DNA of 64,000 bases from positions 1-64,000 of the IMG/VR virus record IMGVR_UViG_3300035698_020096; one strand, 5' to 3'. Below, one piece after another: positions 3,610-29,864 of this stretch. Position 1 is the stretch's first letter. Each line of letters begins with the position of its first letter. Origin of the DNA: a virus. The notes under the pieces are model-generated. The model did not search any database and was not told the DNA's origin. It worked only from the letters and a program-made list of their open reading frames with translations. The translations under genes and the position numbers were made by a program.

Positions 3610-4116
3610 ATGATTACTCTTATTGGATTTCATACGAATTGGGAGCTTAAAGTCTATGGAGTATTTACAGATTCAACCTTTAATTATCCTCATTTAGAAT
3701 TAAATAATGGTGTATTAAATATGGAGTTAATAAAAGAAAGATTGAAAGTTAGAGATAAACTCAATCCTTTCTACTACACCTCTCCATATTTAATAGCGAA
3801 GGTAGAAACTGAGGAGTCTATTCAATTATTCAAAGTAAGTACAGAGTTAGAGATTAGAGTCACTTATATACTTTCTACAGAAGCCCCTAAGACCATTGAT
3901 GCTATAAGCCCTATCTCTAGTTTTATATCAATAGAAAAAGATAGATTAGATTTGAACCAGAGAATATTTACATCTATTAAGGAGTTATTAAGACCGCCTA
4001 CATTAATACTTCATAATGGTAATATTCTAGGATATAACAATGGGGAATATTTCCCATTAGATAAAGAAGATAAAGAAGATAAAGAGGAAATAACTTATGA
4101 TTTTATATCGAGCTAA
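3610..4116 (+). CDS. hypothetical protein
   Basis: 168-aa ORF in the + strand run; 9-bp DKE repeat near the end. Confidence 0.75.
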   Translation: MITLIGFHTNWELKVYGVFTDSTFNYPHLELNNGVLNMELIKERLKVRDKLNPFYYTSPYLIAKVETEESIQLFKVSTELEIRVTYILSTEAPKTIDAISPISSFISIEKDRLDLNQRIFTSIKELLRPPTLILHNGNILGYNNGEYFPLDKEDKEDKEEITYDFISS

Positions 4117-4614: not shown

Positions 4615-4789
4615 CAAAATAGTAATTAATGGTAAGTTTGTATGTCAACTAGGTAGTAAGACTTATGCTGGTTCAGTACTATCAGTAAATAATAAAGTAT
4701 GGGCAAATAATAAACCTATGGCTACTGCTCCTGGTAAATGTAGTGAAGGTATATCTTTATTTGGAGACCCAAAGGTAATATTAGGATGA
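4520..4789 (+). CDS. PAAR-like spike-tip protein
   Basis: 89 aa with three-fold repeats (KIVINGKFVCQLG / KVWANNKPMATAPG / GDPKVILG) and Cys/His residues. Confidence 0.7.
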   Translation: MAIPKMVLCIGHRVLRLIPPPPTPGVALTGCNKIVINGKFVCQLGSKTYAGSVLSVNNKVWANNKPMATAPGKCSEGISLFGDPKVILG

Positions 4790-6184: not shown

Positions 6185-6475
6185 ATGGATTTAAGTAATT
6201 ACTACGTGTGTTATGAGGTCACCGCGTTACCTCAAGTAATATATGCTCATTTGCATAGAGCAGATAATCTGCCTTCTATTGAAGACTTTCAAGTACCGTC
6301 GGGGTTAGATAATTTAGCCATAGAAGTTCGTATAGGTTTATATGATAATCAAGGCTTCCTACTTCAAATGTCTAGTCAATTGATTACTGCCTATAAGCCT
6401 ACATTACTAAAAGCATTAACAGTTATCCCAAATAGAATGATCCAGTCATTAATAAGTGAGTATTCTAATGATTAA
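6185..6475 (+). CDS. hypothetical protein
   Basis: 96-aa ORF coupled to the next gene. Confidence 0.7.
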   Translation: MDLSNYYVCYEVTALPQVIYAHLHRADNLPSIEDFQVPSGLDNLAIEVRIGLYDNQGFLLQMSSQLITAYKPTLLKALTVIPNRMIQSLISEYSND

Positions 6476-7277
6476 TCTTATATATAAGAAGATAGTAGTA
6501 GAAAGAGATACAGTATTAAAACCTTCGACCAGAGAAGCAGTTGTAACTAGACCTGAGGATTTATACACTCTTAAAAAGGGTCAGTCTTTCGATTGTATCC
6601 GTATAGTGGAGCATCTTAATCATTATTGCTTGGACCTCCGTGAAGCGATTCAAGGTCATCAAAGATGGTATGCTTTCATGGGTCATTGCTATATAGAAGA
6701 ACCGAAACCCTCCGTTGCAACCCCCATAGCTAATAAAGAAGTACTAGTTAAAGGAGTACCTTTCTTTGCTCAATATGATAATAGATATAAACCTAACACT
6801 TCCTGCTTCCTAACAAGTGCAGCTATGATAATGGCCTATCATGGGATTAAGCCTTTACATAACGGAGTACAGTTAGAGGACGAGTTGTATCAATATGCTA
6901 TTAAAGGGGGACTTAATAGATTTGCCGGTGAACATGTAGCACAGGTAATTAAAGATTATGGACTTAATGCTACCTATAGTACTAAAAGGAGTTTCCAAGA
7001 TATTAAAGACCAGCTTAATAAAGGGAATCCTTGTACGTTAGGAGTATATAGTACATTTGCTGGACATATCATATGCATAATTGGTTACGATGATACAAAG
7101 AAACACTTTATATGTCATGACCCCTGGGGGCGTTGGTTGGGTACTAGAGGAGATTATGATTTCAATCATAGTGGAGAAATGGTTTACTATTCCTATTCTG
7201 ATTTAGGTAGAGAAGCTAGTCCAGAAAGTCCTAATAACCCTTCTGATTGCTGGTCTACATTTATAAGTAAGAAATAG
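6456..7277 (+). CDS. C39-like papain-fold peptidase with N-terminal SH3-like domain; probable endolysin
   Basis: VPFFAQ...SCFLTSAAM (Gln/Cys), GHIICIIGYD (His) and HDPWG (Asp). The QLEDELY segment is typical of cyanobacterial homologues. Likely start is ATG 6468. Confidence 0.8.
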   Translation: MSILMINLIYKKIVVERDTVLKPSTREAVVTRPEDLYTLKKGQSFDCIRIVEHLNHYCLDLREAIQGHQRWYAFMGHCYIEEPKPSVATPIANKEVLVKGVPFFAQYDNRYKPNTSCFLTSAAMIMAYHGIKPLHNGVQLEDELYQYAIKGGLNRFAGEHVAQVIKDYGLNATYSTKRSFQDIKDQLNKGNPCTLGVYSTFAGHIICIIGYDDTKKHFICHDPWGRWLGTRGDYDFNHSGEMVYYSYSDLGREASPESPNNPSDCWSTFISKK

Positions 7278-7845: not shown

Positions 7846-7869
7846 TGTTTTATATGAATATAAAGTTTT

Positions 7870-7918
7870 ATTGTTATTAATATTATTATTATTATTAATA
7901 TTATTAATATTATTAATT
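7870..7918. repeat. AT-rich low-complexity (ATT/AAT)n tract
   Basis: TTATTAATATTATTATTATTATTAATATTATTAATATTATTAAT. Confidence 0.8.
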
Positions 7919-7938: not shown

Positions 7939-10900
7939 TTAAGTAATCATCAATTCATAATTACCTTCAGATGTAACCTGTAGGTCGAGTTGGTCAATAG
8001 CCATCCACTCAGTATCTACAGCTAAGTGAAATAACTCTGCATCTAAAGGAGATATATCCTCTGCATATACAGCTTCTCCTTGTTCATTAAATACATCTGG
8101 AGATGACTCTCTTTCAGCACTTATAGATTGGTCTCTAGCCCTACTATTATTGAGTGCATCTAGAGCTTGGTCGATAACGGCAAAGTCATTTACTCTACCT
8201 GTATCATGCATCCCGGCTACTAAATGGCCAGTAAGACCTTCCATCATCATACCTAGAACCCCGGATAAGATAGCTCCTGATACAGTAAGAGCAGTACCTT
8301 TAGTGCCTACATAGCTATCACTATCAATAGCTCCTTTAGTACTACCAAGCATATACATTAGTTTATCTTCTTTAGATAGTTTACCTATCTTAGTCTTTTC
8401 AAATAGTTCTCTTTGTCCTTTCATCATATGACTCATATAGAAGAAGGAGTTAGTTACCCCTTTTTCAATAGCTGGAGCGAGAACCATTGCCCCCAAGGCA
8501 AACCCTAACTCACGACCCGCAGATATAGCCATTGCCTTACTAAGGTCTCCTTCTGATTCTTGTAAAGCTAAGTTTAACTTAAAGCTACTACCTATACCTT
8601 TAATACCTGCTGATATTGCACCTTTAGCTATCCCCCCTTTCTTAGTACCTTCCAGATTAGAAGGGAGACCAATTCTCTGAGACAGCATAGAGGAAAGAAT
8701 GCTTCCCTTAGACATAGAAGCTGCTATTAAGCTACTACCTACTACATCTCCTAATGCTTCTCTATCTAGTCTTCCACCTAAAACAGCACTACCTATTAGA
8801 GTAAGTGCAGCAGGTATAATAAAGTCCTGAATACCACTTAGTTTATTTGCATTAGATTCAGCTTTTAAGACATTCATATAATCAAAGCCAGGATTAGCAT
8901 TTATCTCTTGAGGCATTCGATTATTATTTACCTTTCTCCTTTCCTTCTGAGACATAAACATGAACTCATCCATAGCTGATTCATACTTACCCTGAAGCTG
9001 ACTAGTATAGGAGTTTACTCTTTCATTAGCTACTCTATTTATCTGTTCCTTATTAGCTTTATTATTTATATCAAGTCCTTGTAAAGCTAACTCATCCCTA
9101 GCTTTAACTCTTTCTTGTTCTATTAAAGTCTTTCTATTAACTATACCTTCAACAAATATAGAACCATTAAGATAAGACTCTACATCAGCTTGAGGGCCGT
9201 ATAGTTTATTCATCATTTCAACAAGAGCCTTACCTTTAGCCACAGTAGCTGTAGTTTCTAACTTATCAGTGATATATTTAGTTAGATTCTTCTTAACTCT
9301 ATCTGAACCTTCGCCTACCTCTACTTCTATATCTTTACCCTCAGATATGATTCTATGAATCATAAGTCTCATATTCTCTTCTTCTTTCTGGTCTACATTT
9401 CTACCTCCTTTAGTAGCAAAGGACATCTGTCTGTTATCTCCTTCCCCTGTAACTATTACTCCACTAAGTAAGGAAGGAAGAAGACCTTCTATATGGTCAG
9501 CACCACTTTGATACATACTGGATAGAACTTCACTGCTACCAAAGGCTTCCCATATAACAGGAATAGCATGAGAACTTAGTTTATTACTACCAGCTAAATT
9601 CATTAGACTAGTCCATATATCAGCTCCCATACCAGGATTAATCTCTCTTTCAGACCTTCCTCCTATTACCGATACAGCTTCTTGCCTAGCTCCTTCTAAA
9701 CTAGTAAAGCGTTGGAATCCTTCACCAGCTAATCCCATCATGCCTCTAGTAGCTTGAGTAGTATTCTCTATAATCTCTACCATAGATAGAGCCTCCATAG
9801 TCATGTCAGGTCTTCTTCCATCTCTTATATCTTTACTAGATATATCCAGATAGTTTCGTTTAATATCTTCTCTATCCTTACCAAACATCTGTTCCAATAT
9901 ATATAAATTCCTACTACCCTCAGCAGTTCTCTCGCTGAACTTACTATCTATATAGGTTTGTAGATTAGCTTTTTCATCTAGAGCTGGATTATATATACCT
10001 TGTTGCTCCATTAATCCAAGGGTTCCCTTCTTAACATTAGTCATGAAACCTAATTGAGAGCCTTTCTCATACTCCTCAGCCCCAGTATCAGTATTATATC
10101 TATAAGCAATAATGAGAGTTTCTAAACTCCTTTGAGTTTTAAGTGCAGCTACATCAAAGGCTGAAACTCTATCCTTACTATAGTTTTTTAATAGTTCTGT
10201 ACTTAATCTATCAAACTCATCTCCACCCATTCCAAATTTAGTTCTGAGGATAGATTCAGTATCACCGAATTGATCATTACCCCAAGGAGATATTAATTCT
10301 CCACTATTATCCATTCGTACTTCGTTATTAAGTCCGGGTTTTCTAAGACTTTCTCTTTGACCTATTAAGTCAGATAGTTCCATAAAGGCTGACATACCTA
10401 CATTAGAACCAGAAGGACCGAACATAGAAGCCTTTTCTCTAACTAATGCTTGTTGAGCTAATGGGTCACTACTGAGACTTTCATATTCGACAGCAAAGTT
10501 CTTCATATCATCCAACATACCGGAACCACCTTTAGGTTTAATGCCATCCCGTAGTAGCTGATTAACGCTCTTAATAAAGGATAGGATACCCTCACTTTGT
10601 TGACTAGATTTATCTAATTCAGAATAGAAAGTATCTTCAGTCATATGTACATCCACACCTCCTTTAATAACCCCTTCTTTAGGTTTATCAAAGAAGCCCC
10701 CTTGTCTAAGAACTTCTCTAGTTCCGTCATCCTTTAATACATGATTAAGAGCCAGTAAGGGACTATCGGAATAAAGGGTTCCAATGAAAGTATTATAAGT
10801 TTTACCTAGGACTATACCTCCTGCTTCTCCCATTACCTTAACCATAGAGTCATAAGCATTAAGGGTCATATTAGCCCCTGCACCTTGAGCTAGTACTCCT

Positions 10901-13900
10901 TGGAGTCCAGGTAATCCTCTATATCTAGCGTAGAAGGACGAACTAGCATGAGCCATTACTACTTCTCTATCCAGTTCTTCTTGACCCTTACCTTGCTCAT
11001 TCAAAGGTATTAAGTAACTATTAAGACTCTCCTTAACTGTATCTAGAACAGTTCGTCTAGCTTCCTGGTCTACCATTAGTAAGCTCATATAAGTAGACTC
11101 ATTCTTTCTATCCCTATCATTTCTAACAATAGATTCAAGACTAGCTACGAGGGTTTGGTCTAGTTTATTAACATTACTTTGATTACTAAGAAGTTCAAAT
11201 AGAGAAGTATTATGTCCAGCTATATCTAAGTTCTCATTAAATATATTATTGAGTACAGACTTAATACTATTAGTGCCATCTATAACCCCTTCCATGCCAC
11301 CGAATAAATCTCTACCGAAATATATCTCGGTGAATATAAGGTCTAAGCTAGGACTAGTCTTTTGAAAGCCTCCTTCTTCTTTACTCATTAAGAACTCTTT
11401 ACGAATCCCTAAGAAGTTAGCTACTTCTTTCTTAGTAGCACGAGTAAAGTCACTACTATTAAGATTCTCTTTCCATATATCTAATCTAGAATTATTATCT
11501 ACTATCTTACTTCTTTCTTGTTCTATATCAGACCTTAACTTAATTATCTTATCTGTAGCTTTAGCTACTAAATCAGGCTCAGAAGTATTACCAATAGTTT
11601 TCTCTAATCTATCTAAATCTCTTTCCTTTTTACGGATTAAGATATTAGACTTTTCTATATCTCTTTGAGCTGACATGAACTGACTAAATATAGTAGTATA
11701 TTGGTCACCATCAAAGTCACCTAAGTTCATAGTTAAGAAACTAATAGGCGCTACTAAAGATAACCCTTTATTCCTTACAGAGTTCTCAAATGAAGCTTTA
11801 TTACCTTGAAGGTTTTGAGAGTATTGATTGAGCAATCCTATATCTTGAATTAACCCTACAGTCATCCTTTGTTGTTCGGTACCACCTACGGGAGGAGACC
11901 TAAAACTTAATGCTTCTAAACTATCTGTTATATCTAAAGTATTCATTGATACTTCAAGAAGACTAATAGCTCTATTAAATCCCTTTTTACCCTCAAGACT
12001 AAATGCTCCAGCTTTCTCCACTTCTTCCTTACTAGTACCTAATAAAGAATAAGCATTAGCTGAAGTCTTCTTACCTATTAATTTATCAATAGCCTCTACA
12101 TCTGAACTACTTATAGATTTAGATGTAACTCCCGATTGAAGAGTATCTATAACTTTTATTAAACTCTTTATATCTTGTCTATTAGAATCTGTTATACCTT
12201 TATGTTCTTCAGATATTTTAAAGGTATTAGTATCTCTGCTTTCTAGTTCGGTTACTACCTTAGTAAACCCCCCACTCATTTCTCCTAGAACAAAAGAGAA
12301 CATATCTCTTCTATCTCCATCAGAAGATAAGCCCTTTAAATAATCATTATCAAAACTAAAGGCTTTTACTCTACCTTTGTAGGACCCTTCCATTAAACCT
12401 TTATTAGCTATGGTCTTATCTAAGGTTTTATCTAAGGTTTCATTAATAGTAGAAGTTTGATAAGCTTTTATAGCTTGGTTAGCCTCTTCTTCTGTAGCAT
12501 AAGTAAATGAGCTGAATTTAGATTTATATTTAATTTCACTTGAAGGGCCCTCTAGTTTCAAATCGTATTCTTTAATACTATTTTTAAGAACTCCTACTCG
12601 TTGATTTAATAATTTCTTATATTCAAGTAAATCTTTCCCTTCTATATTTTTACTAATAGCTTCTTTAACAAATGAATCAAGATTAGCATCACTAATCACA
12701 CCTTTAAATTCTTGTCTTAATATCTCATAATTAGCTTCTTCAGCTTTATTAAAATCAGATAAAAGAATGGTTCCTACTTTACTAGGTATTAGTTCTTGCT
12801 TAGTTATTTCTTTAATATAAGCTAGTAACTTATCATCACTGACCACACCCCTGAAGTAATTCTTTAGTTTATTAAGATTGTATTCATTCAGGTCCGTATA
12901 TTCTTTAAGGAGAAGAGTTGCTATATCTGTTGGTAATTTATCTACCGAACCCAATTTCTTCTGTTTATCAGCTAACTCTTTAATGTTATCCGTAATAATT
13001 CTTAAGCTTTCCACATACCCTTGCCTTTCCTCCTGATTCAGGCCTACCCCACCCTTAGAGGATTTAAGTCTAGTAGCAATATCCTTCCTTTCATTTTGAC
13101 GAATATCCATCTGTTCTCTAAAAGTTAACCGTTGATTAAAAGCAGTAAACCTTTCTTCTATAGCAGTAACAGTAGTCCCTGATAAACTAGGTAATTCTCC
13201 TCTAACAATTCTGGAGAACTCTTCGATATCAATAGGACCCCTTGTAACCATATAGTCTTCGGTAATAGATAAAAGACTTCTTATATTCTCTCTTTCCTTA
13301 GATAAGCTAGAGAAGCCATCTTTTATCTTACTAAAAGCACCTGTACCTAATGCTGTATCTATAGCCCTTCTTTCTTCAGGGGTTAATGAGACCTTACTGC
13401 CACTAAGAAATAATCTCCCCTCTAAACCTTTCCTTTGCTGCTGAAGAAAGTTTAGTTCATTATTTAAATTCAGTCTACTATACACCTCCTCATTTAATCT
13501 AGCTTTAGCTTTAGGGCTTAAACTAGGTAATTCCTCATCAATAATAGTTGCTAGGACAGAAGCTCCCTTTCCATCTTCTATAGCTATTTTTACTAGTTCA
13601 GTAATATCATTTATCTTACTTTTTTCTAAAGATAAACTATTTACACGAGCTAGAATATCTTCATATAAACCGCTTTTAATTATGGATGTAACTGCTTTTC
13701 TAGTGTTAGATATAGCCTCTATACTTTCAAAGGCTGTAGTTCTTGTCTTATTTAAATAATCTATATAACCTTTTGAAAGAAGTATAATTTCTTTAGCTTC
13801 TACATTTTTAGCAATATCGCCTAAAGCTATATCAATCTTTACTATTTCTAATAAAGCTAATTGTTTACCAAAGTTATCCCCCGAGGTATCAGCTACACCA

Positions 13901-16900
13901 ATATTATCAATAGCACTTTGTAATCTATTACTTATATCCTTAGCTTTATCTTTATCCCCTTGTATATTTAAGTCAAGAGATTGAAACTCTCGTTTATATT
14001 TACCAACTAGGTTTAGTAAGTCCCCTCCTACTTGAGATAAGCCTGACTCGGTGGCTCTAATGGCTGATTGATATACCGCCTTTTCTTTGTTATATAAAGG
14101 AGAACTCTCATCTAGATTAGTCATTCCCACTCTTAGCTCAGAACTAATCTCTTCTCTTATAGGAGATATGCCGGTGTACCGTCTAATAGCTTCTTGAGCT
14201 AATACCATGTGCCCCGCAGGTACCATCCAACTAGCAGCAGGACTAGATACAGCCCCAGGGTATTTAGTTTTATGAGCCATCATTCCCTGTATTCTAGTAC
14301 CAGTAGAAGCTTCAGCCATAGTCCTAATGACCCCTGTTTCCCCAATAGCTACTCCATAGAATTGTCTAAGGGCTAGGACTTCTTCTTTATTCAAATCTAT
14401 ATCACTATCTCCACTAAGTTGAGCTCTAGTCATCTTCTCTCTTACTTGACTCATTAGAGTACCTGGAGTAAAAGCAGAAGCTAGAGCTAAGTTCTTAGCT
14501 ACTAATTCATCAACAAAGGAACCATAGGAATCCCCAATAGCTTTAAGTTCTTCTCCACCCATTAAGTAGCTATATCTTCTATCGTTAAAATCTAATTGAA
14601 TTTTCATACTCCCTTCAGCACTTTCATTAGATAACTGGTAAATCATAGGGAGAGAGAAGCTGAATCCTTTATATTTCAAGTTATCTAATACTGGAGCTAC
14701 TGAACCCATACCAAAAGGTTTATTAGGATCCATTTGATATTCTCTACCTATAGCCATCAATCTTTCATCTGATACCTTATCTATAAGTCCAGGTATATCT
14801 TGTATCTCAGTAGATAAACCCAACCCCCCTTCGGCTTGAGGCTTATAAGCTATCCCAAATATCTTTCTAATCCTATCTCCTTTAGAATCGGTAACACTCA
14901 CTTCCCCAGTAAAGGGGTCCCTATACAATTCTCCATAATTAGGACTAGCTATTAATAAATCATGAACAGTTCTTAGACTATCCATTCGTTGGTCTTTGTC
15001 AACGGCTACAGCTAATACATTTAAATGGGCTTCTATTACTTGCCTAGATAGTTCTCCATAGATACTATAGTCCTTCTCTATTTGAGTAAGCTGTTCCTTA
15101 TTAATAGCGGAATAGCCTGCATATAACCCTACAAACTTACTCTTATCTAATTGAGAGGCTAGACGTATATCGGTAAAATCATATATCTTTCTATCAGTAA
15201 ACCCTCGCTTAGCTAAGTCCATCTCTAAGCCCGTCATAGTACTACCTTCGGATACTACTGACATCATATTAGCTACTACCTTTCTAAGAGAAGCAATAGA
15301 GCCTGTTTCTTCAAAGCTAGTGACAATAGTAGCCATTGGTTTCATTAGGTGTTGAAACTCAAGAGAACCTGAATGTTTACTACCGAGGGATTCTTTAGAT
15401 TGAGAAGCCATTGGACCTATAAACATTCGGAGTACTGTTGACTTATGAGTATAACCTCTAACAATAGCTCTAGTTATTTCGAGATAATCAAGAGCTTCTT
15501 GCTCTTCTTGATTAAGATTATCCAAGGCTAACTTCTTCTCTCTTAAATCTCTAGCCATTTGAATCTTATCTAAATCAGCATCTCCCATAATAAAAGCTAG
15601 TTGCTGAATGATACGGTCGTTACTATAATCAATCTCAGTGGGTACTTCTATTCCTGCTGTTTGTGCTTTCAATTGTTCAACTAAATCAATAGATGCAGCT
15701 ATTAAAGTAGCCTCTCTTTCCCTTGAATCATCTATTCTAATAAAGTCTCTCTTAGTAACTCCTACTGAACCTTTATCTCCAATAGACTCTAGCAATCTAG
15801 TTCTAATAAATCCCTTCATATAATCCATATCTTCTTGATAACCTTTAAGAGCCCCAAGAACTTTAGTATCATCCAGTAGTTGAAGACTAGGGGTTTGTTG
15901 AGCATTAAATAAATCAGTAGACTCCTTAAAGACTGCTTCTCCAAATACTCTACCCAATTCAGTTCTTAACTCAAGAGTATCTATATATATATCAGAAGTA
16001 CTATCTAGTATTTGACTTAACTTACTTAAGTCTTGCTTAACTCCCAATCGTTCTAAATGTCCCCTTATCTCTTCATTCTTAGATACACCTGTAAGTACTG
16101 CACCTAACGCTTGATTCCTAAACCATTCTCCTAACTCTCCTTTCATTGCTGATTCAAATAGCTGAGTCTTTATCTGACTCCCTATTCCTTTATCACTAAT
16201 CCATGAATCTTCAAATCCCATCATTAGAGAAGCTATTAGTCCCTTACCTGTAATACCTCCCTGTTGCGTTTCTAAACTACCTATAAGGGGTTCAAGGTAC
16301 TTCTTATTACGAATAATAGTAGAACCATGAGAATAGAAATAGCTCTTGAGGTTAGAAGGACTGAATAAACCAAAGACTTGACCTACATCTATATCCCCAG
16401 TAGCCCCTGCTTTATTCCTATTTAATTGTTCAGTTACATAAGAGAAGAAGTCTGTCTTACTTCCTGGTACTTGATATAGCTCCTCTAGACCAGTAAATTT
16501 AAGTACAGCTTTAGGTAGTCCTCCAGTACCTTCAACTCTCTTACCTCCACCTACCATAATGGAACGTAAATATACCATTTCCCATAACAACTGGTTATTA
16601 TCAGCATTACCCATCAGTTGTTTAGAATCAAGTACATACTCGACACTATTCTCTGAGGCTCTATACCAGGCCTGTCTATCTAGTTTAGATACGTTAGGTA
16701 AATCATTAATAGTTCTAAAGTTATCGATAACTTCTGTGAGTGCCCCTACTTGGTCTCTAGAGTCAACTACTGATTTAGTAACATAATTACCTTCAGTATC
16801 TGAATAGGTATAGTATCTATCAAAACTATCTCCAAGAGTAGCCCTTACTAGCTCTAACTTAGCTTCTCCTGTAAGCTTATCCATACTTACTATTTCTTTA

Positions 16901-19900
16901 GGAATACCTCCCCCTTGCTTCATCATTTCCTCAGCAGAACCCCAAACTAATACTCTATTAGTATCAGAGTCAAAGGTAACTATATCTCCTCTATTTGCTA
17001 ACATTACCCCTTTATGGCTCCATTCCTCTGATAGTTTAGAAGACTTCTGTCTCTTCTCACTCTTATCTATAAAGCCACTCATAGTACCCATACGTCCTAT
17101 TACCTCAGCTTGAGACACCTTATCTAATCTCTTCCAGTCATAGCCTACAGACCTTAATTTAGATTTAACGAATTCTCTATCATCTGTACTAGAACCATAT
17201 AAAGGATTAGCCCAAGCGTAGTCACTATAGTCCCCAGTGAGTTGAACTAAAACTATAGGGTCAAATCCTTCCTTATTACCAGTAAAACCTTTAATACCCC
17301 CAGCCATAGAGTCAGCTAATTTAGCTCTAGTTAAAAGTAGCTTTCTAGCTATAGAAGTAGACCCTGGTAGAAACTCATTATCTAAGAATCCAAATTCATC
17401 CTTAAGTTCTTTCTTAGCTTCCTCAATTAGATTAGCTATTTCGCTATTAACAACTGTTCTAAAGCCTGCATCACTAACTACCGCTGTATTTAAATCAGTA
17501 CCTACAGTCGTCTCCACCCTACTCCACATAGTTCTAAGACTACCCATTAATTCTTCACTGTTTACAGATAGTCTTTCTAAGGAAGCCCTTTCAACTACTT
17601 TCTCAATAACTCTAGAAGGATTGTACATCCCTAGATTACTAGTACCCACTACATCCCTAAGTATTTCTACAGCTCGTTTAATTCCCCATGATTCCTTCTT
17701 AGCTAATTGAGACATTAGGTCTACTTTAATACCTGTAACTCTTTCATTAATTAGACCTGATACATCTCCTTTAGTAGTAAGACGATAAGATAGTTCTCTA
17801 TCTAACTCAAACATAGGTCTACCTCCCAGAACATTCTTTAAACGTTGAGGTATCTGTGAAGCTTTCTTTGCTACATTAAACGTATAGTTTATTGACTCAT
17901 TTACAGTCTCATCTTTAAATGGAGTAGCATCTATTAAATCTTTAAAGTCTTTATTTAATCCATTAGGTAAAGCTTCCCCAGATTGGATTCTATCTACTAG
18001 TTCATCCGTATTAGCTATACCCAACGTTCTTAAAGATGACGAATATTTATCATACAGCAGTTCACTTATATAAGTAACATATTGGTCTCTAGTGTTTATA
18101 TAACCCACCCCTGCAAATGAGGCCAGTTGCACTGAGCTTACATCTCCAGTAGGAGTTTTATTAATACCATACACACTAAGTCCAGTAGTTTCTTGACTAG
18201 CTGATATACCACTACCGTCTGCTACTCCTCTAATAGCCCCTTCAGTTCCCTTACCTGTAGTATTAGCAGGACCAAAGATATAAGATTGAGCTAGAGCATA
18301 TCTATAAAAAGCTTCACCTTTATTCAATTTATCTATAAATATTTGTTGATTATTATTAATACCGTATAAGGGATTTTTAAACCATGCTTGAGATGTTCCA
18401 TAGGTAGAAGCTCCAGATTGAGTAATAAAGGGTTCTAACATCCCGGCCTTTACTTCTTTAATATCTGACTTTAATTTAGTGGCATATAGAAAGTCTTTTC
18501 TACTCTCTAATATCCCTAATGCAATATCGGATTGGAAGGTACTTACACTTTCCAATCCCATGTATCTATCGAAGGTTTCTCTAATAGCGCCTACAGCATC
18601 TTTCTTAAGTGACTCAAGAGCCGATCTTCTTTCGCGACTAACTTTAGGGTCAGTTATCTCTCTATTAACATCTCTAATTAACTCAAGATGACTTAGTACT
18701 GAACGTCTAAGAGCTAAGTCAGTATCTCCATATATTTGCTCCTTAGTAAGCCCTCTATTAGCTAATCCTTCCCCTTTAGCTAACTTATCATATATACCCC
18801 CTCCAGTAAGTTCAAGAGCTCTTTTAGAAGTACCACTTACCCTCTCTCCTAAATGTTTAGTAGTAAAAGTGGATATAAGTTTAGATATTTCATAATCACT
18901 TAATGAATTATCTAATAGGAAAGTACCAGCACTTGAATCAGTACCTCCTGAAGCTATATGACCTCTAGATAGATATTCTAGGTAGCCTAATCCAGCAGTA
19001 GCTAATCTAGTAGTTTGAGCATCGTACTGGCTTTCCTTTAGAGCTTTCATATAAGCCATCGGCTCAGCTACTAAAGTTCTATAAGTAGTCTCTGCTGCTA
19101 ATGTACTAACTACATTTATTAACGAATCTACTGGACTTAATCTCAAAGCTTCTTTAGATTTAACTACTCGGGGGTTTAATTCATACTCCCCAGTTTCATC
19201 ATTACGAACAAAGGAACCTTCTCCATAAGGTATTCCCCCTATATCTGTGTCAGTATTATTAACAAAGAGAGAGTTACCTATTACTTTATTCTGGTCAATC
19301 AAATATACAAAGCCCTGATTAGTTCCCATCCCTCCTTTTAAACTAGTTAGTCTAAACTTAATAGGATTAAATCCAACATTAGTATCTTGGAATCCTCTAT
19401 ATCCAACCATATCCGCTGGATTAATAGTGAGTTCCAACGCTAGTAAACTTCCTCCTTGTCCATATATATTCTTAACTCCCAGTCCCCCTGTATCTAAACC
19501 CATATCCTTATTTAATTGTTTAACTCTAGCTGTTATTTCAGCTATACCCAGAGCATTAACTTTATTCTCCCAACTAGCTCTAGTTCCTTCAAGAGAAGTG
19601 TCAACATTACCTACAGTAGTTTGAGTCAATCTTCTCCATTCTCTTTCTCTATCCGTACCTTGCTGAGCATAGAAGTTCTCCAAATCTGCACCTAAATTCT
19701 CCTCTTCATTTCTATATAAGATTCCTTTAGATTTAGCATGCTCTCTCATCTCTCTAGCTAAGGCAATAACTCCTACTTCAGAACTAACAGCTTCCTTATC
19801 ATCTCGACTAAATGCCATTGATTCAGAACCAAAGTTAGAGCTTCCAGTAATACTAGCTATATGTCTATATGTATCTTCTCCAAGACCCATACCAGTTCTT

Positions 19901-22308
19901 TCAATAGCAAATACATTTTTAACGTGAGACATAGTTTCAGTAACACCGATAATGTTACCTCTAGTCATAGCAAGTAATTGCTTAACTGTTCTATCTGCTG
20001 CCTTACTAGCTACTGCTTTAGATTTAAACTTAGACCCTAAACCTAAACTATATTTCTCTTCTATGTTGCTAAGACTATCTCTAGAATTAACCCCGGTTTC
20101 ATCTAGTCCTAATACTTTGAGTAAACTATTTCTATTACCATGCTTACTAGTGAGTTCTTGAAGACTGCTATTATATTCGGTCTCCATTCTCAGAGAACCA
20201 ATCCTCCTATAATCTTCATTAGTAAAGTCAGATAAAGAGGGTCTTCCTTCTGTCCATCCTTTAGGTTTATATCTTCCATTTCCACTATCTACAGCAGCTT
20301 TACCTAATAGGTAATGAACCCTTTCTGTCATAGGCTCTAAGACTTTATCCCTATAGTTCCTAATATCAACAGAGATATAAGCTTGATTATTAATTAGTAA
20401 ATCAAATAGATTCTCTTGTATTTCATTTCTATATATAGACCTTCTATTTGATTCTCTTTTACCTGTTAGTTCATTAAGAGAAGTTTGCCGACTATTATCA
20501 GGTCCAAACTCCCCTCCAAAGTCTCCTCCCTTACCGTAGTACAAGTCATTGTCATATTGAAGTAACCATACTTGGTTTAGGTTCATATAGACTTCTACTC
20601 TTTTATCTGAACCCATCCCCCTCTTACCCTGAGCATAAGAAAGTATAGACCGTAAACCCTGACCTATGTCCCCCGCTAGTCCTACTTGGCCCCCAGTAAA
20701 AGCTTCACCCCCTGTTGCTCTTCTAATCCCTCCAATAGCTAATCCTCTAGTTTGGAGGAATAGATGAGTATCAACATATTCCTTAGCTTTTTCTTCCTCT
20801 ATAGAATCACTCTTTTTAGATAAACCTTTAGATTCAAGAGTACCTACATCTCTCATACTCATATAATCTCTAAGGTCAGCTCCAGTATCTCTATAGTTTT
20901 TATTTATAAGTCTTATCTTCTCAGTAATAGAAGCAGTACTATCAAATCCACTGGATACAGGGTTTAATATACTTCTCATTCGATTATGAAAGATAACTAT
21001 TTCTTCATAGTTAGACCCTGCTTGCACTACTGAGTTACCTACTGGGGAAGTTAAGTTAAACGAACCCAACATTGCATATCTTTCAGTGGTATATGCCTTA
21101 GGGTGATACATGCCTTCTGACATCATCTCCAAGGTAAAAGAGGGAAGAAGTTTAGCTATCTTACTATTTATATCTAAAGCCCTTTCTTCACTAGATATAG
21201 CAATCTTATTAGAAGCTGTAGCGCTTGCCTCTAAATCAAACTCTTTATCTAATATCTTCTTTTGAAGAATATATAGTCTTTCCATAACCACTATATTAGG
21301 CCCTAGAATCTGGTGTCCTACCATATTTCTTCTATCCCCTTCAGTAGGGCCAGCTAGTCTTAATTGAAACTTAAACTCACCTCTAGCTATACGCCCACTT
21401 TCCCTTTCTAATTTCTTAACTAGTACATCAGCTACCGCTTTATTCTGCAGTTGAAATAAATCAATAGTTAATTCTTTCTCAGCACTTTCAATAAAGGCTA
21501 CAGCTGAACGTATACCTGGTTTAGCTACATAATCTGTCTCTGTAAGTATCTGATTAGATACTTCTCTAACCCTCTCAGTTATATCGGTAAACTTCCCATA
21601 TTGTCTATTAAGATTAGAAGACTCTCTACTTCTTATTAATTCTTGATGATATTCAGATACACGTCTAGTAGCTCCTACTTCTTCGGTAACTAATACATTA
21701 TTCATTAACCAATTACCTGAAGCTATAGTTACTCTATCTCCACCCCATTGGTGTGAGTTATACCATCCCATTGGTTTAGTAACATATAACCCTCCATATA
21801 AAGATTTATTCCCTACTTGAGTCACATCATGTTTAAATAGATGTTGGTATGTTCCGGAAGAAACATAGCCTTCCCATTCTTCTCTTCTTCTATCCTGTTC
21901 TTTACTACTGAGAGTATCATCAAAGAAGCCTTTATCTAATCCAATATTAAAGTTACCTATAACTCTATTTATAACCTTAGTACCACTTAAGGTCAAGTCA
22001 AACACATCCTGAGAGAAAGAAGAAAATGCGTTCCTACCTAAAGCTCTAAGGACTTCAGTCTGAGGGTCTATATTACCTGTACTAACTGATTCAGTAGATA
22101 GCTTCTTCTGCCAACCCTTTCTATTTACTTCTCTCTTTTCACTAGTTAAACCTCTATATGAGCTTTGATATCCAACAATTAAATTACCAGATTCGTATGT
22201 ATCTGTTCTTTCTTTATTCCATGAAAGATGGAAGTTAACCGCACCTCTAAGAGCATCATCAACCCCCATATTTCTAAATGCTGAATCATAATTCTGTATC
22301 AATGCCAT
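7939..22308 (-). CDS. giant (4,789 aa) putative virion protein: two PLD-like nuclease domains, single-chain double-psi-beta-barrel RNA polymerase, hydrophobic C-terminus
   Basis: PLD-type motifs: HPK...GSFNL...NYE (H402) and HVK...GSSNF...SE (H795). Polymerase-type motifs: GGGKRVEGTGGLPK (K1923/K1933), FRSPP (R3470), GDFDGD (D3531-D3535), LGKTYN and DGIK. No Cys found. Confidence 0.85.
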   Translation of the reverse strand: MALIQNYDSAFRNMGVDDALRGAVNFHLSWNKERTDTYESGNLIVGYQSSYRGLTSEKREVNRKGWQKKLSTESVSTGNIDPQTEVLRALGRNAFSSFSQDVFDLTLSGTKVINRVIGNFNIGLDKGFFDDTLSSKEQDRRREEWEGYVSSGTYQHLFKHDVTQVGNKSLYGGLYVTKPMGWYNSHQWGGDRVTIASGNWLMNNVLVTEEVGATRRVSEYHQELIRSRESSNLNRQYGKFTDITERVREVSNQILTETDYVAKPGIRSAVAFIESAEKELTIDLFQLQNKAVADVLVKKLERESGRIARGEFKFQLRLAGPTEGDRRNMVGHQILGPNIVVMERLYILQKKILDKEFDLEASATASNKIAISSEERALDINSKIAKLLPSFTLEMMSEGMYHPKAYTTERYAMLGSFNLTSPVGNSVVQAGSNYEEIVIFHNRMRSILNPVSSGFDSTASITEKIRLINKNYRDTGADLRDYMSMRDVGTLESKGLSKKSDSIEEEKAKEYVDTHLFLQTRGLAIGGIRRATGGEAFTGGQVGLAGDIGQGLRSILSYAQGKRGMGSDKRVEVYMNLNQVWLLQYDNDLYYGKGGDFGGEFGPDNSRQTSLNELTGKRESNRRSIYRNEIQENLFDLLINNQAYISVDIRNYRDKVLEPMTERVHYLLGKAAVDSGNGRYKPKGWTEGRPSLSDFTNEDYRRIGSLRMETEYNSSLQELTSKHGNRNSLLKVLGLDETGVNSRDSLSNIEEKYSLGLGSKFKSKAVASKAADRTVKQLLAMTRGNIIGVTETMSHVKNVFAIERTGMGLGEDTYRHIASITGSSNFGSESMAFSRDDKEAVSSEVGVIALAREMREHAKSKGILYRNEEENLGADLENFYAQQGTDREREWRRLTQTTVGNVDTSLEGTRASWENKVNALGIAEITARVKQLNKDMGLDTGGLGVKNIYGQGGSLLALELTINPADMVGYRGFQDTNVGFNPIKFRLTSLKGGMGTNQGFVYLIDQNKVIGNSLFVNNTDTDIGGIPYGEGSFVRNDETGEYELNPRVVKSKEALRLSPVDSLINVVSTLAAETTYRTLVAEPMAYMKALKESQYDAQTTRLATAGLGYLEYLSRGHIASGGTDSSAGTFLLDNSLSDYEISKLISTFTTKHLGERVSGTSKRALELTGGGIYDKLAKGEGLANRGLTKEQIYGDTDLALRRSVLSHLELIRDVNREITDPKVSRERRSALESLKKDAVGAIRETFDRYMGLESVSTFQSDIALGILESRKDFLYATKLKSDIKEVKAGMLEPFITQSGASTYGTSQAWFKNPLYGINNNQQIFIDKLNKGEAFYRYALAQSYIFGPANTTGKGTEGAIRGVADGSGISASQETTGLSVYGINKTPTGDVSSVQLASFAGVGYINTRDQYVTYISELLYDKYSSSLRTLGIANTDELVDRIQSGEALPNGLNKDFKDLIDATPFKDETVNESINYTFNVAKKASQIPQRLKNVLGGRPMFELDRELSYRLTTKGDVSGLINERVTGIKVDLMSQLAKKESWGIKRAVEILRDVVGTSNLGMYNPSRVIEKVVERASLERLSVNSEELMGSLRTMWSRVETTVGTDLNTAVVSDAGFRTVVNSEIANLIEEAKKELKDEFGFLDNEFLPGSTSIARKLLLTRAKLADSMAGGIKGFTGNKEGFDPIVLVQLTGDYSDYAWANPLYGSSTDDREFVKSKLRSVGYDWKRLDKVSQAEVIGRMGTMSGFIDKSEKRQKSSKLSEEWSHKGVMLANRGDIVTFDSDTNRVLVWGSAEEMMKQGGGIPKEIVSMDKLTGEAKLELVRATLGDSFDRYYTYSDTEGNYVTKSVVDSRDQVGALTEVIDNFRTINDLPNVSKLDRQAWYRASENSVEYVLDSKQLMGNADNNQLLWEMVYLRSIMVGGGKRVEGTGGLPKAVLKFTGLEELYQVPGSKTDFFSYVTEQLNRNKAGATGDIDVGQVFGLFSPSNLKSYFYSHGSTIIRNKKYLEPLIGSLETQQGGITGKGLIASLMMGFEDSWISDKGIGSQIKTQLFESAMKGELGEWFRNQALGAVLTGVSKNEEIRGHLERLGVKQDLSKLSQILDSTSDIYIDTLELRTELGRVFGEAVFKESTDLFNAQQTPSLQLLDDTKVLGALKGYQEDMDYMKGFIRTRLLESIGDKGSVGVTKRDFIRIDDSREREATLIAASIDLVEQLKAQTAGIEVPTEIDYSNDRIIQQLAFIMGDADLDKIQMARDLREKKLALDNLNQEEQEALDYLEITRAIVRGYTHKSTVLRMFIGPMASQSKESLGSKHSGSLEFQHLMKPMATIVTSFEETGSIASLRKVVANMMSVVSEGSTMTGLEMDLAKRGFTDRKIYDFTDIRLASQLDKSKFVGLYAGYSAINKEQLTQIEKDYSIYGELSRQVIEAHLNVLAVAVDKDQRMDSLRTVHDLLIASPNYGELYRDPFTGEVSVTDSKGDRIRKIFGIAYKPQAEGGLGLSTEIQDIPGLIDKVSDERLMAIGREYQMDPNKPFGMGSVAPVLDNLKYKGFSFSLPMIYQLSNESAEGSMKIQLDFNDRRYSYLMGGEELKAIGDSYGSFVDELVAKNLALASAFTPGTLMSQVREKMTRAQLSGDSDIDLNKEEVLALRQFYGVAIGETGVIRTMAEASTGTRIQGMMAHKTKYPGAVSSPAASWMVPAGHMVLAQEAIRRYTGISPIREEISSELRVGMTNLDESSPLYNKEKAVYQSAIRATESGLSQVGGDLLNLVGKYKREFQSLDLNIQGDKDKAKDISNRLQSAIDNIGVADTSGDNFGKQLALLEIVKIDIALGDIAKNVEAKEIILLSKGYIDYLNKTRTTAFESIEAISNTRKAVTSIIKSGLYEDILARVNSLSLEKSKINDITELVKIAIEDGKGASVLATIIDEELPSLSPKAKARLNEEVYSRLNLNNELNFLQQQRKGLEGRLFLSGSKVSLTPEERRAIDTALGTGAFSKIKDGFSSLSKERENIRSLLSITEDYMVTRGPIDIEEFSRIVRGELPSLSGTTVTAIEERFTAFNQRLTFREQMDIRQNERKDIATRLKSSKGGVGLNQEERQGYVESLRIITDNIKELADKQKKLGSVDKLPTDIATLLLKEYTDLNEYNLNKLKNYFRGVVSDDKLLAYIKEITKQELIPSKVGTILLSDFNKAEEANYEILRQEFKGVISDANLDSFVKEAISKNIEGKDLLEYKKLLNQRVGVLKNSIKEYDLKLEGPSSEIKYKSKFSSFTYATEEEANQAIKAYQTSTINETLDKTLDKTIANKGLMEGSYKGRVKAFSFDNDYLKGLSSDGDRRDMFSFVLGEMSGGFTKVVTELESRDTNTFKISEEHKGITDSNRQDIKSLIKVIDTLQSGVTSKSISSSDVEAIDKLIGKKTSANAYSLLGTSKEEVEKAGAFSLEGKKGFNRAISLLEVSMNTLDITDSLEALSFRSPPVGGTEQQRMTVGLIQDIGLLNQYSQNLQGNKASFENSVRNKGLSLVAPISFLTMNLGDFDGDQYTTIFSQFMSAQRDIEKSNILIRKKERDLDRLEKTIGNTSEPDLVAKATDKIIKLRSDIEQERSKIVDNNSRLDIWKENLNSSDFTRATKKEVANFLGIRKEFLMSKEEGGFQKTSPSLDLIFTEIYFGRDLFGGMEGVIDGTNSIKSVLNNIFNENLDIAGHNTSLFELLSNQSNVNKLDQTLVASLESIVRNDRDRKNESTYMSLLMVDQEARRTVLDTVKESLNSYLIPLNEQGKGQEELDREVVMAHASSSFYARYRGLPGLQGVLAQGAGANMTLNAYDSMVKVMGEAGGIVLGKTYNTFIGTLYSDSPLLALNHVLKDDGTREVLRQGGFFDKPKEGVIKGGVDVHMTEDTFYSELDKSSQQSEGILSFIKSVNQLLRDGIKPKGGSGMLDDMKNFAVEYESLSSDPLAQQALVREKASMFGPSGSNVGMSAFMELSDLIGQRESLRKPGLNNEVRMDNSGELISPWGNDQFGDTESILRTKFGMGGDEFDRLSTELLKNYSKDRVSAFDVAALKTQRSLETLIIAYRYNTDTGAEEYEKGSQLGFMTNVKKGTLGLMEQQGIYNPALDEKANLQTYIDSKFSERTAEGSRNLYILEQMFGKDREDIKRNYLDISSKDIRDGRRPDMTMEALSMVEIIENTTQATRGMMGLAGEGFQRFTSLEGARQEAVSVIGGRSEREINPGMGADIWTSLMNLAGSNKLSSHAIPVIWEAFGSSEVLSSMYQSGADHIEGLLPSLLSGVIVTGEGDNRQMSFATKGGRNVDQKEEENMRLMIHRIISEGKDIEVEVGEGSDRVKKNLTKYITDKLETTATVAKGKALVEMMNKLYGPQADVESYLNGSIFVEGIVNRKTLIEQERVKARDELALQGLDINNKANKEQINRVANERVNSYTSQLQGKYESAMDEFMFMSQKERRKVNNNRMPQEINANPGFDYMNVLKAESNANKLSGIQDFIIPAALTLIGSAVLGGRLDREALGDVVGSSLIAASMSKGSILSSMLSQRIGLPSNLEGTKKGGIAKGAISAGIKGIGSSFKLNLALQESEGDLSKAMAISAGRELGFALGAMVLAPAIEKGVTNSFFYMSHMMKGQRELFEKTKIGKLSKEDKLMYMLGSTKGAIDSDSYVGTKGTALTVSGAILSGVLGMMMEGLTGHLVAGMHDTGRVNDFAVIDQALDALNNSRARDQSISAERESSPDVFNEQGEAVYAEDISPLDAELFHLAVDTEWMAIDQLDLQVTSEGNYELMIT

Positions 22309-22645: not shown

Positions 22646-23092
22646 ATGGCACCAGAACGTTCAAATCTATTAACTATTGAATTCCCTGAGTTTACTCTAC
22701 CTTCTGGTAAAGTAGTAGCATTTCGTTCCATTACCTTCCGAGAACGTCGAAAGTTAATGAAAGATTATAAAGGTAGAGAGGAAGGTTATGCAGCAGAAGA
22801 CTTGTTTGCTGCGTATGCTTTATCTAAAGAAGATGGTATGCCTGTAGCAGACGATTGGGCTATTGATGGTGGAGTTATTGCTAGATTAGACCATTGGTCT
22901 ATGAAAGACTTTGCTTATTATCTTGAAGTATTTGTTAGAACCATTGGTTTAGAAGAAGACGAACGTACTAGTGCTGAATCCGCAGCAAAAAAGATGGTGG
23001 CAGCAAGTGGTACTCAGCAAGTGAATACTACCAATCAATCTTTACCCAAGGGGCTCAAAGTACAACCATCTGGTGGTACTACCGGTTTATAA
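22646..23092 (+). CDS. putative tail assembly chaperone (short form)
   Basis: FTLPSGKVVAFRSITFRERRKL N-terminus; contains an in-frame A_AAA_AAG slippery site. Confidence 0.7.
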   Translation: MAPERSNLLTIEFPEFTLPSGKVVAFRSITFRERRKLMKDYKGREEGYAAEDLFAAYALSKEDGMPVADDWAIDGGVIARLDHWSMKDFAYYLEVFVRTIGLEEDERTSAESAAKKMVAASGTQQVNTTNQSLPKGLKVQPSGGTTGL

Positions 23093-23718: not shown

Positions 23719-25107
23719 ATGGATAAAAGTCCTTCAGAAGAATCTAATTCCACAATAGTCACATTACCCCCTATTGAGATATCTCCTAGATATAGAAGGA
23801 GACCTATATATCTAGGGCAGATGGGTAAGGCTATATCTTATATAGCAAATGACAACGATATATTTACAACTTGTGTAAGGCCTAGTACAGAGCAATTGGC
23901 TCTATGGGATTCAGCTACTAGGAAAGAACCTATTATCTTTGATGGTCTACAAAAGATGACCTTAGCTATTAAAGCTAAGCTAGGTACTTACACGCATCCT
24001 ACACACCCTGAGATTACTAAGTTTGTCAGGGCTAATACAAAAAGATTAAAGAAATGGATAGGAGATGCAGCTCATATGGCTTTATGGTCAGGTTCTGCTA
24101 CTGGTGAAATAGTTCATGAGAGAAGAAAAGGACCTAATGGGGAATGGCAAGTATGGGTCAAGGATATAGTATTCTATCATCCTTTAGACCCCTTATTTAT
24201 AGTTAATCAAAACGGTGCTTTAACGCATGGGGAGAAGTTGATTAATAGTCCTTTTCTAACGGGAGTATGGGTTCCTTGTTCTCAATCTCTTATTAATAGA
24301 GGTAGGAGTCTCGGTCCTTCCTTCAGTGGCTCTCATGTTAGATTACCTAAGACCAAGGTATTTCATACTACTCTTAATGGTCAAAGTAATAATCCTTATG
24401 GTATATCTCAATTAGAGGCAGCTATTAAATATCATATATATAAAGAAGCCTTCCTTGAAATGCAAGGGGCTGCCTTAGATAGGTATGGTACTCCTCTTAT
24501 ATATGCAGTAGTTCCAATGCAACCTACTAAGGATGATATTGAAGAGCCTGATGGAACTACTAGAAAGAAATGGTATCACGAGTTAGCTACTGAGTTACTA
24601 TCTGATTTAAGAGGGCAACAATCTATTGTTCTAACTCAGATGGACAAAGACCATCCAGTTAAATTAGAAACCCTTACTACAGGTAATAACTTTAGTGATG
24701 CTTTTAATCAAGCCATTGACCTATGTGATGATAACATAATGATTGCTATGGGTATACCCAACCTAATTCTTAAAGATAAGAATCAAGGCTTAGGTACTGG
24801 GGGTGCAGCTGAAAGACAGATGGAAGCCTACCATATGTTCATAGGAGAGATATATGAGACTATTACTGATGCAATACTTGAACAGGTTATATCTCCTTTA
24901 ATCCTATGGAACTTTGATTATCAAGTCTATACTGAAGCTTATGACCACGGAGGCTTTGGTAGTAAGGCTATTAGAACTTCAGAGAATGCAGTTCAAGCTA
25001 CATATATTGAGAAGTTAGTAAACATGGGAATTGTTGACCCAACTGATTCCCGAGATAGAGACTGGGTAAGGGATTTATTTAATGCTCCTATTACAAGAGA
25101 TGAATAA
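23719..25107 (+). CDS. portal protein (Mu gp29/DUF935-like)
   Basis: NPYGISQLE...YK...LDRYGTP motif, 462 aa, upstream of the protease and capsid genes. Confidence 0.8.
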   Translation: MDKSPSEESNSTIVTLPPIEISPRYRRRPIYLGQMGKAISYIANDNDIFTTCVRPSTEQLALWDSATRKEPIIFDGLQKMTLAIKAKLGTYTHPTHPEITKFVRANTKRLKKWIGDAAHMALWSGSATGEIVHERRKGPNGEWQVWVKDIVFYHPLDPLFIVNQNGALTHGEKLINSPFLTGVWVPCSQSLINRGRSLGPSFSGSHVRLPKTKVFHTTLNGQSNNPYGISQLEAAIKYHIYKEAFLEMQGAALDRYGTPLIYAVVPMQPTKDDIEEPDGTTRKKWYHELATELLSDLRGQQSIVLTQMDKDHPVKLETLTTGNNFSDAFNQAIDLCDDNIMIAMGIPNLILKDKNQGLGTGGAAERQMEAYHMFIGEIYETITDAILEQVISPLILWNFDYQVYTEAYDHGGFGSKAIRTSENAVQATYIEKLVNMGIVDPTDSRDRDWVRDLFNAPITRDE

Positions 25108-29691: not shown

Positions 29692-29864
29692 GTAGATATT
29701 AGATATCTCCAATAATTAAGAAAGAATAACTTTGAGAAATAGTTCTAAAGCCTTCCTATTTATAAAGATGTCTATAGTTCTATTACTGGTTAGGACCTCT
29801 TTTTACTCCTAGTACCTTACTTCCTATAACCCCATTGTCAAACTCTATTATTGAATAAAACAAT

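Follow-up and report, generated by a model that had tools for sequence, protein, structure and literature searches.

A giant head-linked protein of Ma-LMM01-type cyanophages as a candidate virion two-barrel RNA polymerase

Two giant virion proteins of phages have been established as two-barrel RNA polymerases (RNAPs): gp66 of the crAss phage phi14:2 (PDB 6VR4; Drobysheva et al.) and gp96 of Thermus phage P23-45, a tape-measure-fused enzyme of 5,002 amino acids (aa) with proven activity (Chaban et al. 2024, PMC10770324). Both were recognised through a DxDxD motif within a giant virion protein and later proven to be active (PMC10770324; Drobysheva et al.); the authors of the gp96 study saw no sequence similarity to RNAPs other than this motif (PMC10770324), and the virion two-barrel families are described by their authors as sharing little sequence similarity outside the DxDxD region. 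Here, we consider a single open reading frame (ORF) at positions 7939-22308 of a 64,000-nucleotide stretch of viral DNA (‘the window’; positions 1 to 64,000 of IMG/VR record IMGVR_UViG_3300035698_020096, an 80,173-bp virus contig judged ~47% complete), which an original prediction, made from the letters alone, had read as a highly diverged single-subunit RNAP of a probable cyanobacterial myovirus. A polymerase reading of this giant protein is plausible and agrees with how both proven virion RNAPs came to light, and we hold its candidacy as a virion two-barrel RNAP to be slightly on the probable side.

The family to which the window protein belongs has as its founder gp080 of the Microcystis phage Ma-LMM01 (YP_851094.1; 3,562 aa; ‘hypothetical protein’), the first member of PHROG 31006 (‘unknown function’); we found no published function for gp080. 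The window protein matches PHROG 31006 with an E-value of 7.6e-67, and its homologues include gp080 itself, proteins of phages MaMV-DC/DH01/CH01 and one of Microcoleus phage My-WqHQDG, the BLASTP alignment to gp080 spanning aa 773-3995. Homology to the gp080 family is almost full-length (BLASTP 2e-35 and 5e-32), with the same motifs and the same place beside the portal and head genes; identity, however, is at most 27% and the window protein is 1,200 aa longer, mainly through an insertion at aa 2750-3440.

A conserved giant protein with a DFDGD loop

The ORF lies on the minus strand, opens with an ATG start and encodes 4,789 aa. Working from the N- to the C-terminus of its translation, eight motifs follow each other: LTGDYSD (1690-1696); GGGKRVEGTGGLPKAV, with K1923, R1924 and K1933; FGLFSPSNLKS, with K1988; KTKYPG...GHMVL (2680-2706); FRSPP, with R3470; MNLGDFDGDQ, with D3531, D3533 and D3535; LGKTYN (3834-3839); and LRDGIKPK, with D3921. 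ORF and motifs alike are found where the original prediction had placed them, and the translation matches; the minus-strand translation of nucleotides 11686-11904 reads FRSPP...NLGDFDGDQYTTIF, and the DFDGD codons are therefore nucleotides 11704-11718, also as first given. Roughly 0.003 occurrences of DFDGD would be expected by chance in 4,789 aa (using rough, assumed residue frequencies not taken from the sequence); the motif observation is confirmed, far beyond chance. The parts of the protein referred to below are as follows.

7939-22308, minus strand: the whole ORF, 4,789 aa with no cysteine, a member of the Ma-LMM01 gp080 / PHROG 31006 giant family
19729-21561, minus strand: N-terminal PLD/HKD-type phosphodiesterase region, aa ~250-860, seen from conserved columns and PF13091 matches
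17818-17865, minus strand: the most conserved basic block, K1482-x2-Q-x2-Q-R-x-K-N-x2-G-x-R, each named position kept in 96-110 of 111 sequences
17203-17244, minus strand: QLTGDYSDYAWANP, aa 1689-1702, invariant in 32 sequences; candidate first half of a beta-like barrel
16321-16554, minus strand: GGGKRVEG...LPKAV and SPSNLKSYFYSHG, aa 1919-1996, with invariant R1924, K1933 and K1988; candidate second half of a beta-like barrel
14173-14307, minus strand: STGTRIQGMMAHKTKYPGAVSS...VPAGHMVLA, aa 2668-2712, with invariant G2685; candidate first half of a beta'-like barrel
11989-14061, minus strand: variable K/E/L/S-rich helical insertion, aa 2750-3440, from the conservation profile, an anchor table and composition
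11686-11904, minus strand: F-R-S-P-P-x-G...N-L-G-D-F-D-G-D-Q-Y-T-T-I-F, aa 3469-3541; candidate second half of a beta'-like barrel, from conservation and hhalign
10735-10863, minus strand: 43-residue helix, aa 3816-3858, with an invariant Gly-rich centre, G-x-A-G-x-x-x-L-G-K-T-Y-N, at a bridge-helix-like position, from AlphaFold and invariant columns
10474-10638, minus strand: helix-loop-helix, aa 3891-3945, its tip carrying invariant Q3917, R3920, D3921, K3924 and K3926; trigger-loop-like, from model helices and conservation
8149-8841, minus strand: C-terminal Gly/Ala-rich region with two hydrophobic segments (aa 4492-4514 and 4671-4692), from a hydropathy scan; aligns with the Microcoleus phage homologue

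A word-indexed search returned 31 homologous giants of 3,294-6,490 aa, a profile search run exhaustively through 1.84 billion representatives gave 108 clusters (nearly all of 3,000-5,100 aa), and scans of IMG/VR and of metagenomes yielded 42 related loci. Family members align almost end to end, except at aa 2800-3300, within a variable helical insertion that is missing from the short members; the insertion as a whole (aa 2750-3440) amounts to ~750 aa in the window protein versus ~340 aa in short homologues. We assessed conservation in two alignments, one of 32 full-length homologues (20-77% identity) and one of 111 giants (2,800-6,500 aa). The sequence D-[FWY]-D-G-D is retained in 32/32 of the full-length homologues, in every related locus that covers the site and in 107-109 of the 111 giants, the only variants among the related loci being DWDGD and DYDGD (L010 and L021), with aspartates and glycine unchanged; no other site of the 4,789-aa chain is better conserved. 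Across the 111 giants just 48 of the 4,789 columns are conserved at 85% or more, five of them within GDFDGD. They comprise two HxK...GSxN sites (H402/K404/N418 and H795/K797/N825); the basic block at 1482-1497; R1924, K1933, K1988 and G2685; and, towards the C-terminus, R3470, P3473, GD-DGD (3530-3535), G3827-N3839 (with G3835, Y3838 and N3839) and Q3917-K3926.

At 20-25% identity, G-D-[FWY]-D-G-D, R3470-x-x-P, LGKTYN and R3920-D-x-I-K-x-K remain invariant or nearly so, as do R1924, K1933 and K1988. As the original prediction requires, the loop and the other motifs are kept in the 32 homologues, the related loci and the 111 giants; of the two lysines that it had listed, K1933 is conserved but K1923 is not, the invariant residue at that point being R1924. 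The near-invariant residues outside the loop are mostly basic or glycine (R1489, K1491, R1924, K1933, K1988, K3836, R3920, K3924 and K3926), as expected around a nucleic-acid/NTP site. The loop itself sits in a beta'-type context: R-x-x-P ~60 aa upstream, N-x-G immediately before it and a hydrophobic strand after.

Cysteine is nearly absent from the family as a whole (median 0, maximum 1, in the 111 giants), which fits a protein that must unfold or cross the tail and periplasm. In two loci the gene is broken into a pair of ORFs (L009, 9392-20500, 1,471 + 2,231 aa; L018, 8242-16223, 649 + 2,012 aa), which may stem from a frameshift introduced in sequencing or be a natural division; in L009 the break separates the presumed halves of the beta-like barrel.

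At the N-terminus, two HxK(x)4D...GSxN half-sites are conserved (H402-P-K404...G-S-F-N418 and H795-V-K797...G-S-S-N825). The PLDc_2 family, PF13091, matches 8/10 homologue segments (best E-value 1.2e-7), two of them above the curated cut-off, with the window protein's own segment at an E-value of 1.8e-4 and 21.8 bits, below the 27-bit cut-off. Going by these matches, the region is a genuine PLD/HKD domain. At the opposite end of the chain, the two hydrophobic segments suggest possible insertion into a membrane after ejection. Taken together, this PLD domain, the hydrophobic C-terminus, the lack of cysteine and the head-module synteny (see below) describe a conserved, head-associated giant that is probably ejected.

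Comparison with two-barrel polymerases

Using hhalign, we compared the family profile (of 32 or 111 sequences) with a 43-sequence crAss gp66 alignment, 81 RpoC sequences, 69 RpoB sequences and residues 1-1200 of P23-45 gp96. In every comparison the catalytic loop was the sole element to align: for beta' it was DFDGDQ, for gp96 DFDGD and five further residues, and for gp66 DFDID. In whole-profile searches, the catalytic blocks of all three placed their top match at the DFDGD site (that of the gp66 DFDID block being 3517-3535), with a P of about 0.003-0.005 for the beta' DFDGD block over all 4,789 positions; block matches are biased toward the most conserved columns. Over the same positions, the E. 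coli beta' 333-378 block has its top match at 2674-2695, with a non-significant score, whilst the gp66 bridge-helix block (top match 3827-3842) and the E. coli trigger-loop block (match at 3826-3838) score at noise level. Other identities for the loop were ruled out from general knowledge rather than by computation: an FG-GAP-type calcium loop (DFDGD is single-copy, without the G-x-x-D continuation), HAD motif I (the protein has D at the fifth position, where T/V would be expected, and there is no hydrophobic strand right before the loop), and the Toprim and AEP DxD motifs (unfitting sequence context).

Two segments were modelled with AlphaFold2: aa 3440-4263 (me9b438b4bfef; predicted local distance difference test score, pLDDT, 71) and aa 1850-2810 (m18340bf397e3; pLDDT 75). 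In the first, we see a 43-residue helix centred on the invariant LGKTYN, some 300 aa past DFDGD (model residues 377-419; pLDDT about 65-77), followed by a helix-loop-helix (model helices 452-483 and 491-505; moderate confidence) whose tip carries the invariant RDxIKxK. In E. coli beta', DFDGD lies at 460 and the bridge-helix region at ~770, a spacing resembling that of ~300 aa in the giant. As modelled, helix and hairpin are compatible with a bridge helix and trigger loop, though not diagnostic of them.

Of the proven enzymes, gp66 is likewise a large virion protein known by its motif, DFDxD, and shares the order of barrel, bridge helix and trigger loop (DFDID at 1361, bridge helix at 1529-1559, trigger loop at 1598-1636). 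It differs in having DFDID rather than DFDGD, in its length of 2,180 aa, and in a connector of 140 aa as opposed to the ~1,500 aa that lie between the presumed barrels here; scores between the two are at noise level, and the gp66 phage is a podovirus, the window phage a myovirus. P23-45 gp96, which the original prediction had rightly named as a single-chain member of the group, resembles the window protein in its giant size, in an exact DFDGD followed by a hydrophobic strand (aligned by hhalign) and in its C-terminal membrane segments. Its polymerase, however, occupies the N-terminal 1,200 aa and its gene the tape-measure slot, whereas the window protein has its motif at residue 3531, its gene by the portal and a PLD domain at its N-terminus, and the similarity between the two is non-significant; a search of IMG/VR for relatives of gp96 found only the phage itself.

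With the cellular subunits (E. coli RpoB/RpoC), the protein shares an identical DFDGDQ and a series of collinear likenesses picked out by eye, suggestive though without statistical support: GYNFEDS, GDK...KGV, NPxxxPSRM, GRFRQ...GK...G.SV, RAP and K.I.L..P......N.DFDGD. The resemblance of QLTGDYSDYAWANP to beta GYNFEDS is of this by-eye kind, without profile support. Only DFDGDQ(+3) is profile-supported, and the giant differs further in being a single chain without Pfam RNAP domains. The virion RNAP of coliphage N4 is a T7-like single-subunit polymerase and has a different fold. At ~3,500 aa it provides a functional analogy only: that of a giant, head-packaged, injected early-gene polymerase.

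From these elements we infer a layout in which an N-terminal PLD-type phosphodiesterase would be followed, in the rest of the chain, by a very diverged single-chain two-barrel RNAP. A beta-like barrel (aa ~1690-1995) would supply R1924, K1933 and K1988; the Mg-binding D3531, D3533 and D3535 would come from a beta'-like barrel whose two parts, aa ~2670-2710 and 3469-3541, are held apart by the 340-750-aa helical insertion; and the Gly-rich helix (3816-3858) and basic-tipped hairpin (3891-3945) would stand at the bridge-helix and trigger-loop places. The giant would be made in the middle/late phase and packed with the head, then exit via the tail with the DNA to transcribe the few first genes before the host polymerase takes over. 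In the published Ma-LMM01 transcriptome, reads for gp080 are absent at 1 h and present at 3-6 h, when most structural genes are expressed too; the ten early genes, gp054-gp063, form one 5.8-kb cluster. As gp080 is not transcribed early, it would have to enter with the virion if it acts in early transcription.

A number of results weigh against a polymerase. Beyond the loop, nothing aligns when the full family is compared by hhalign with beta', beta and the gp66 profile (P of at least 0.15), and the remaining beta and beta' blocks match best elsewhere or at noise level, the aa 1919-1996 segment gaining no profile support from the beta comparisons. In five restricted-region tests, each against 60 column shuffles, 7-39 of the 60 shuffles did equally well or better (P = 0.12-0.65; about 0.12 for the presumed first half of the beta'-like barrel, aa 2668-2712). 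Pfam finds no family at an E-value ≤1 in the whole protein and nothing polymerase-like in 21 segments spanning DFDGD to the hairpin; against PDB sequences, phmmer finds nothing and a profile hmmsearch coiled coils only. Both AlphaFold2 models are mostly helical and contain no barrel, and every motif loop (1919-1948, 2301-2320, 2676-2690 and 3440-3541) has a pLDDT below 50. Foldseek against the PDB gives no match at an E-value ≤0.001 for either model, and VIA-align against 48,161 chains returns helical hairpins only (Z up to 11.4 for the first model and 7.0 for the second); there is no polymerase structural match, the confident helical parts included, nor any beta-subunit match for aa 1850-2810. 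The layout itself is without precedent, with presumed barrels ~1,500 aa apart and one of them split by up to 750 aa. Finally, the Ma-LMM01 transcriptome study describes all promoter classes as sigma70-like (from BPROM predictions only) with no host shut-off, and its authors know of no phage polymerase.

The structural part of this evidence has to be read with the model boundaries in mind. Model m18340bf397e3 begins at aa 1850 and so excludes the presumed first half of the beta-like barrel (~1690), and in me9b438b4bfef the disordered residues 1-102 (aa 3440-3541), which form no barrel, were folded apart from their presumed partner (~2670-2710), located outside the segment; the segments proposed in the original prediction (1650-2000; 2660-2720 with 3450-3560) were different and would have been the right choice. 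Since the cuts split both presumed barrels, the missing barrel is uninformative for a polymerase fold rather than negative. Both of the conserved segments that flank the insertion come out disordered in their separate models, which fits one domain split by an insertion, and the catalytic barrel of E. coli beta' is itself split by one. The diverged single-subunit RNAP of the original prediction thus stands as regards the conservation of its motifs but not as regards profile similarity outside the loop or matches in fold searches, and the polymerase reading is carried by one catalytic-type loop and its context.

Alternative explanations

The main rival, which we regard as unlikely if entirely credible, is an internal or ejected virion protein that is not a polymerase: the PLD domain and hydrophobic C-terminus would breach or bridge the envelope, or attack host nucleic acid, and GDFDGD would bind metal, in a structural or catalytic role, within a different fold. 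This explanation draws on PLD/HKD being the only domain confirmed by a curated model, and on fold and profile searches that support no polymerase element beyond the loop; the lack of cysteine, the hydrophobic end of the chain and the linkage to the head module would, moreover, suit any ejected protein. Short acidic loops of the DxDGD type also occur in calcium-binding repeats, a further point in its favour. The loop in the giant is, however, single rather than repeated, and has neither the FG-GAP G-x-x-D continuation nor the fifth-position T/V of HAD proteins; it is embedded in the beta'-like context R-x-x-P...N-x-G-DFDGD-strand, and the protein has many invariant Arg/Lys residues far apart in the chain, as expected of a nucleic-acid enzyme and not of a structural metal site.

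It is improbable, in our view, that a polymerase doubles here as the tail tape measure, with part of the chain in the tail tube setting its length. P23-45 gp96 is a precedent for such an arrangement, long parts of the giant are helical and its C-terminus holds hydrophobic segments, and between the tube gene (37630-38418) and the baseplate genes we recognise no tape-measure gene; a weak tape-measure match comes from an ORF (43079-44998) that proves instead to be a three-domain cell-wall enzyme. Against this, the gene of the giant is linked to the portal/head module, not to the tail module, in nearly all loci, the giant has no tape-measure PHROG or Pfam match, and tail-module ORFs of 1,138 aa (48599-52015) and 1,221 aa (55763-59428) could fill the role. 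A tape measure spans ~1.5 Å per residue. At 4,789 aa the giant would far exceed the 260-nm tail reported for MaMV-DH01.

A two-barrel polymerase with another job (priming, RNA-templated synthesis or, as in archaeal PolD, DNA synthesis) is very improbable: the superfamily includes both QDE-1 (DNA- and RNA-templated) and PolD, but Ma-LMM01 has its own DNA polymerase and primase, and both known phage virion members transcribe early genes.

Genome context and implications

The candidate virion two-barrel RNAP is encoded next to the head module of a contractile-tailed phage, the surroundings of the gene being as follows.

22646-23092, plus strand: 148-aa ORF (PHROG 32670), which accompanies the giant and portal genes in nearly all related loci
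23719-25107, plus strand: portal protein gene, start of the head module that is linked to the giant gene
26757-28232, strand opposite to the giant gene: Mu-I-like protease/scaffold gene, head module
28411-29691, strand opposite to the giant gene: major capsid protein, head module
34601-37603, plus strand: tail sheath, 1,000 aa, from sheath family matches
37630-38418: tail tube gene, tail module

In nearly all loci the giant gene adjoins the 148-aa ORF and the portal, protease and capsid genes, in divergent or tandem orientation. The tail module also encodes baseplate and cell-wall-degrading proteins, and the portal, protease/scaffold, capsid, tail sheath and baseplate genes together identify a contractile-tailed phage. 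Phage records with a homologue of the giant are confined to the Microcystis phages Ma-LMM01 and MaMV-DC/DH01/CH01/CH02/DL01/DL02 and to Microcoleus phage My-WqHQDG; megablast against phage records gives no match. Structural genes and homologue search thus agree with the probable cyanobacterial myovirus of the original prediction: the phage has a contractile tail and is related to the cyanophages of Microcystis and Microcoleus.

Several further features of the window were seen. Converging on the 3' end of the giant gene is a gene for a C39/papain-like cysteine peptidase (6456-7277, plus strand; PF13529, E-value 7e-21), which could process the giant protein; a homologue of this peptidase lies near the giant gene in one other locus only (L044). 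A 9-nucleotide (nt) AT-only tandem repeat occupies 7867-7918, directly downstream of the stop of the giant ORF and between these two convergent genes. In the sheath, the best-scoring stretch of each family match falls in the C-terminal half (567-991 for the best family), so that an additional domain may make up the N-terminal ~560 aa. After the tube gene, only a 94-aa ORF (38500-38784) precedes a 693-aa protein (window 37630-44998). The set of tail cell-wall enzymes is unusually rich: baseplate with lysozyme at 41008-43074; VanY D-Ala-D-Ala carboxypeptidase, beta-lactamase-like and polysaccharide deacetylase domains in the ORF at 43079-44998 (plus strand); and lysozyme with an M23 peptidase at 45490-46737. 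A 342-aa ORF (1427-2455, minus strand) has a weak CYTH-domain match (E-value 1e-4, just under the cut-off). In the intergenic stretch 707-791 a 17-nt AT-rich unit, TTTATTTAATATATTCC, is repeated in tandem about five times, and a 61-nt element occurs twice, at 785-845 and 29696-29756 (75% identity), the second copy starting 5 nt past the capsid stop; the two copies may represent a common terminator or regulatory element.

We found no published report linking the gp080 family, or any cyanophage, to a two-barrel polymerase, in keeping with the original prediction, which knew of no characterised cyanophage example. We incline, if gently, to placing the present protein of Ma-LMM01-type cyanophages beside the virion two-barrel RNAPs gp66 and gp96 as a candidate. 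More tentatively, and as a proposal somewhat nearer to doubt than to conviction, Ma-LMM01-type cyanomyoviruses would carry the largest known single-chain two-barrel RNAP, fused to a PLD-type nuclease/phosphodiesterase and to a membrane-inserting tail; a coiled-coil insertion several hundred residues long would divide its catalytic beta'-like barrel, and the enzyme would travel in the head and be injected to transcribe the compact early-gene cluster. Virion two-barrel RNAPs would then have three independent lineages, this one being the first known from contractile-tailed phages and from cyanophages.

For toxic Microcystis blooms, Ma-LMM01 and its relatives serve as the model phages in culture, and the polymerase idea is directly testable in this existing system. 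Should the idea fail, there would remain a large class of giant virion proteins, unannotated and cysteine-free, that has, by its sequence matches, a genuine PLD domain. If it is true, an injected polymerase would revise the published view of Ma-LMM01 transcription as dependent on host sigma70 only, and could explain how a compact early cluster is switched on without disturbing host transcription; it would also enlarge the small group of virion two-barrel RNAPs by one lineage, a group with a bearing on the origin of the cellular and RNA-interference polymerases.

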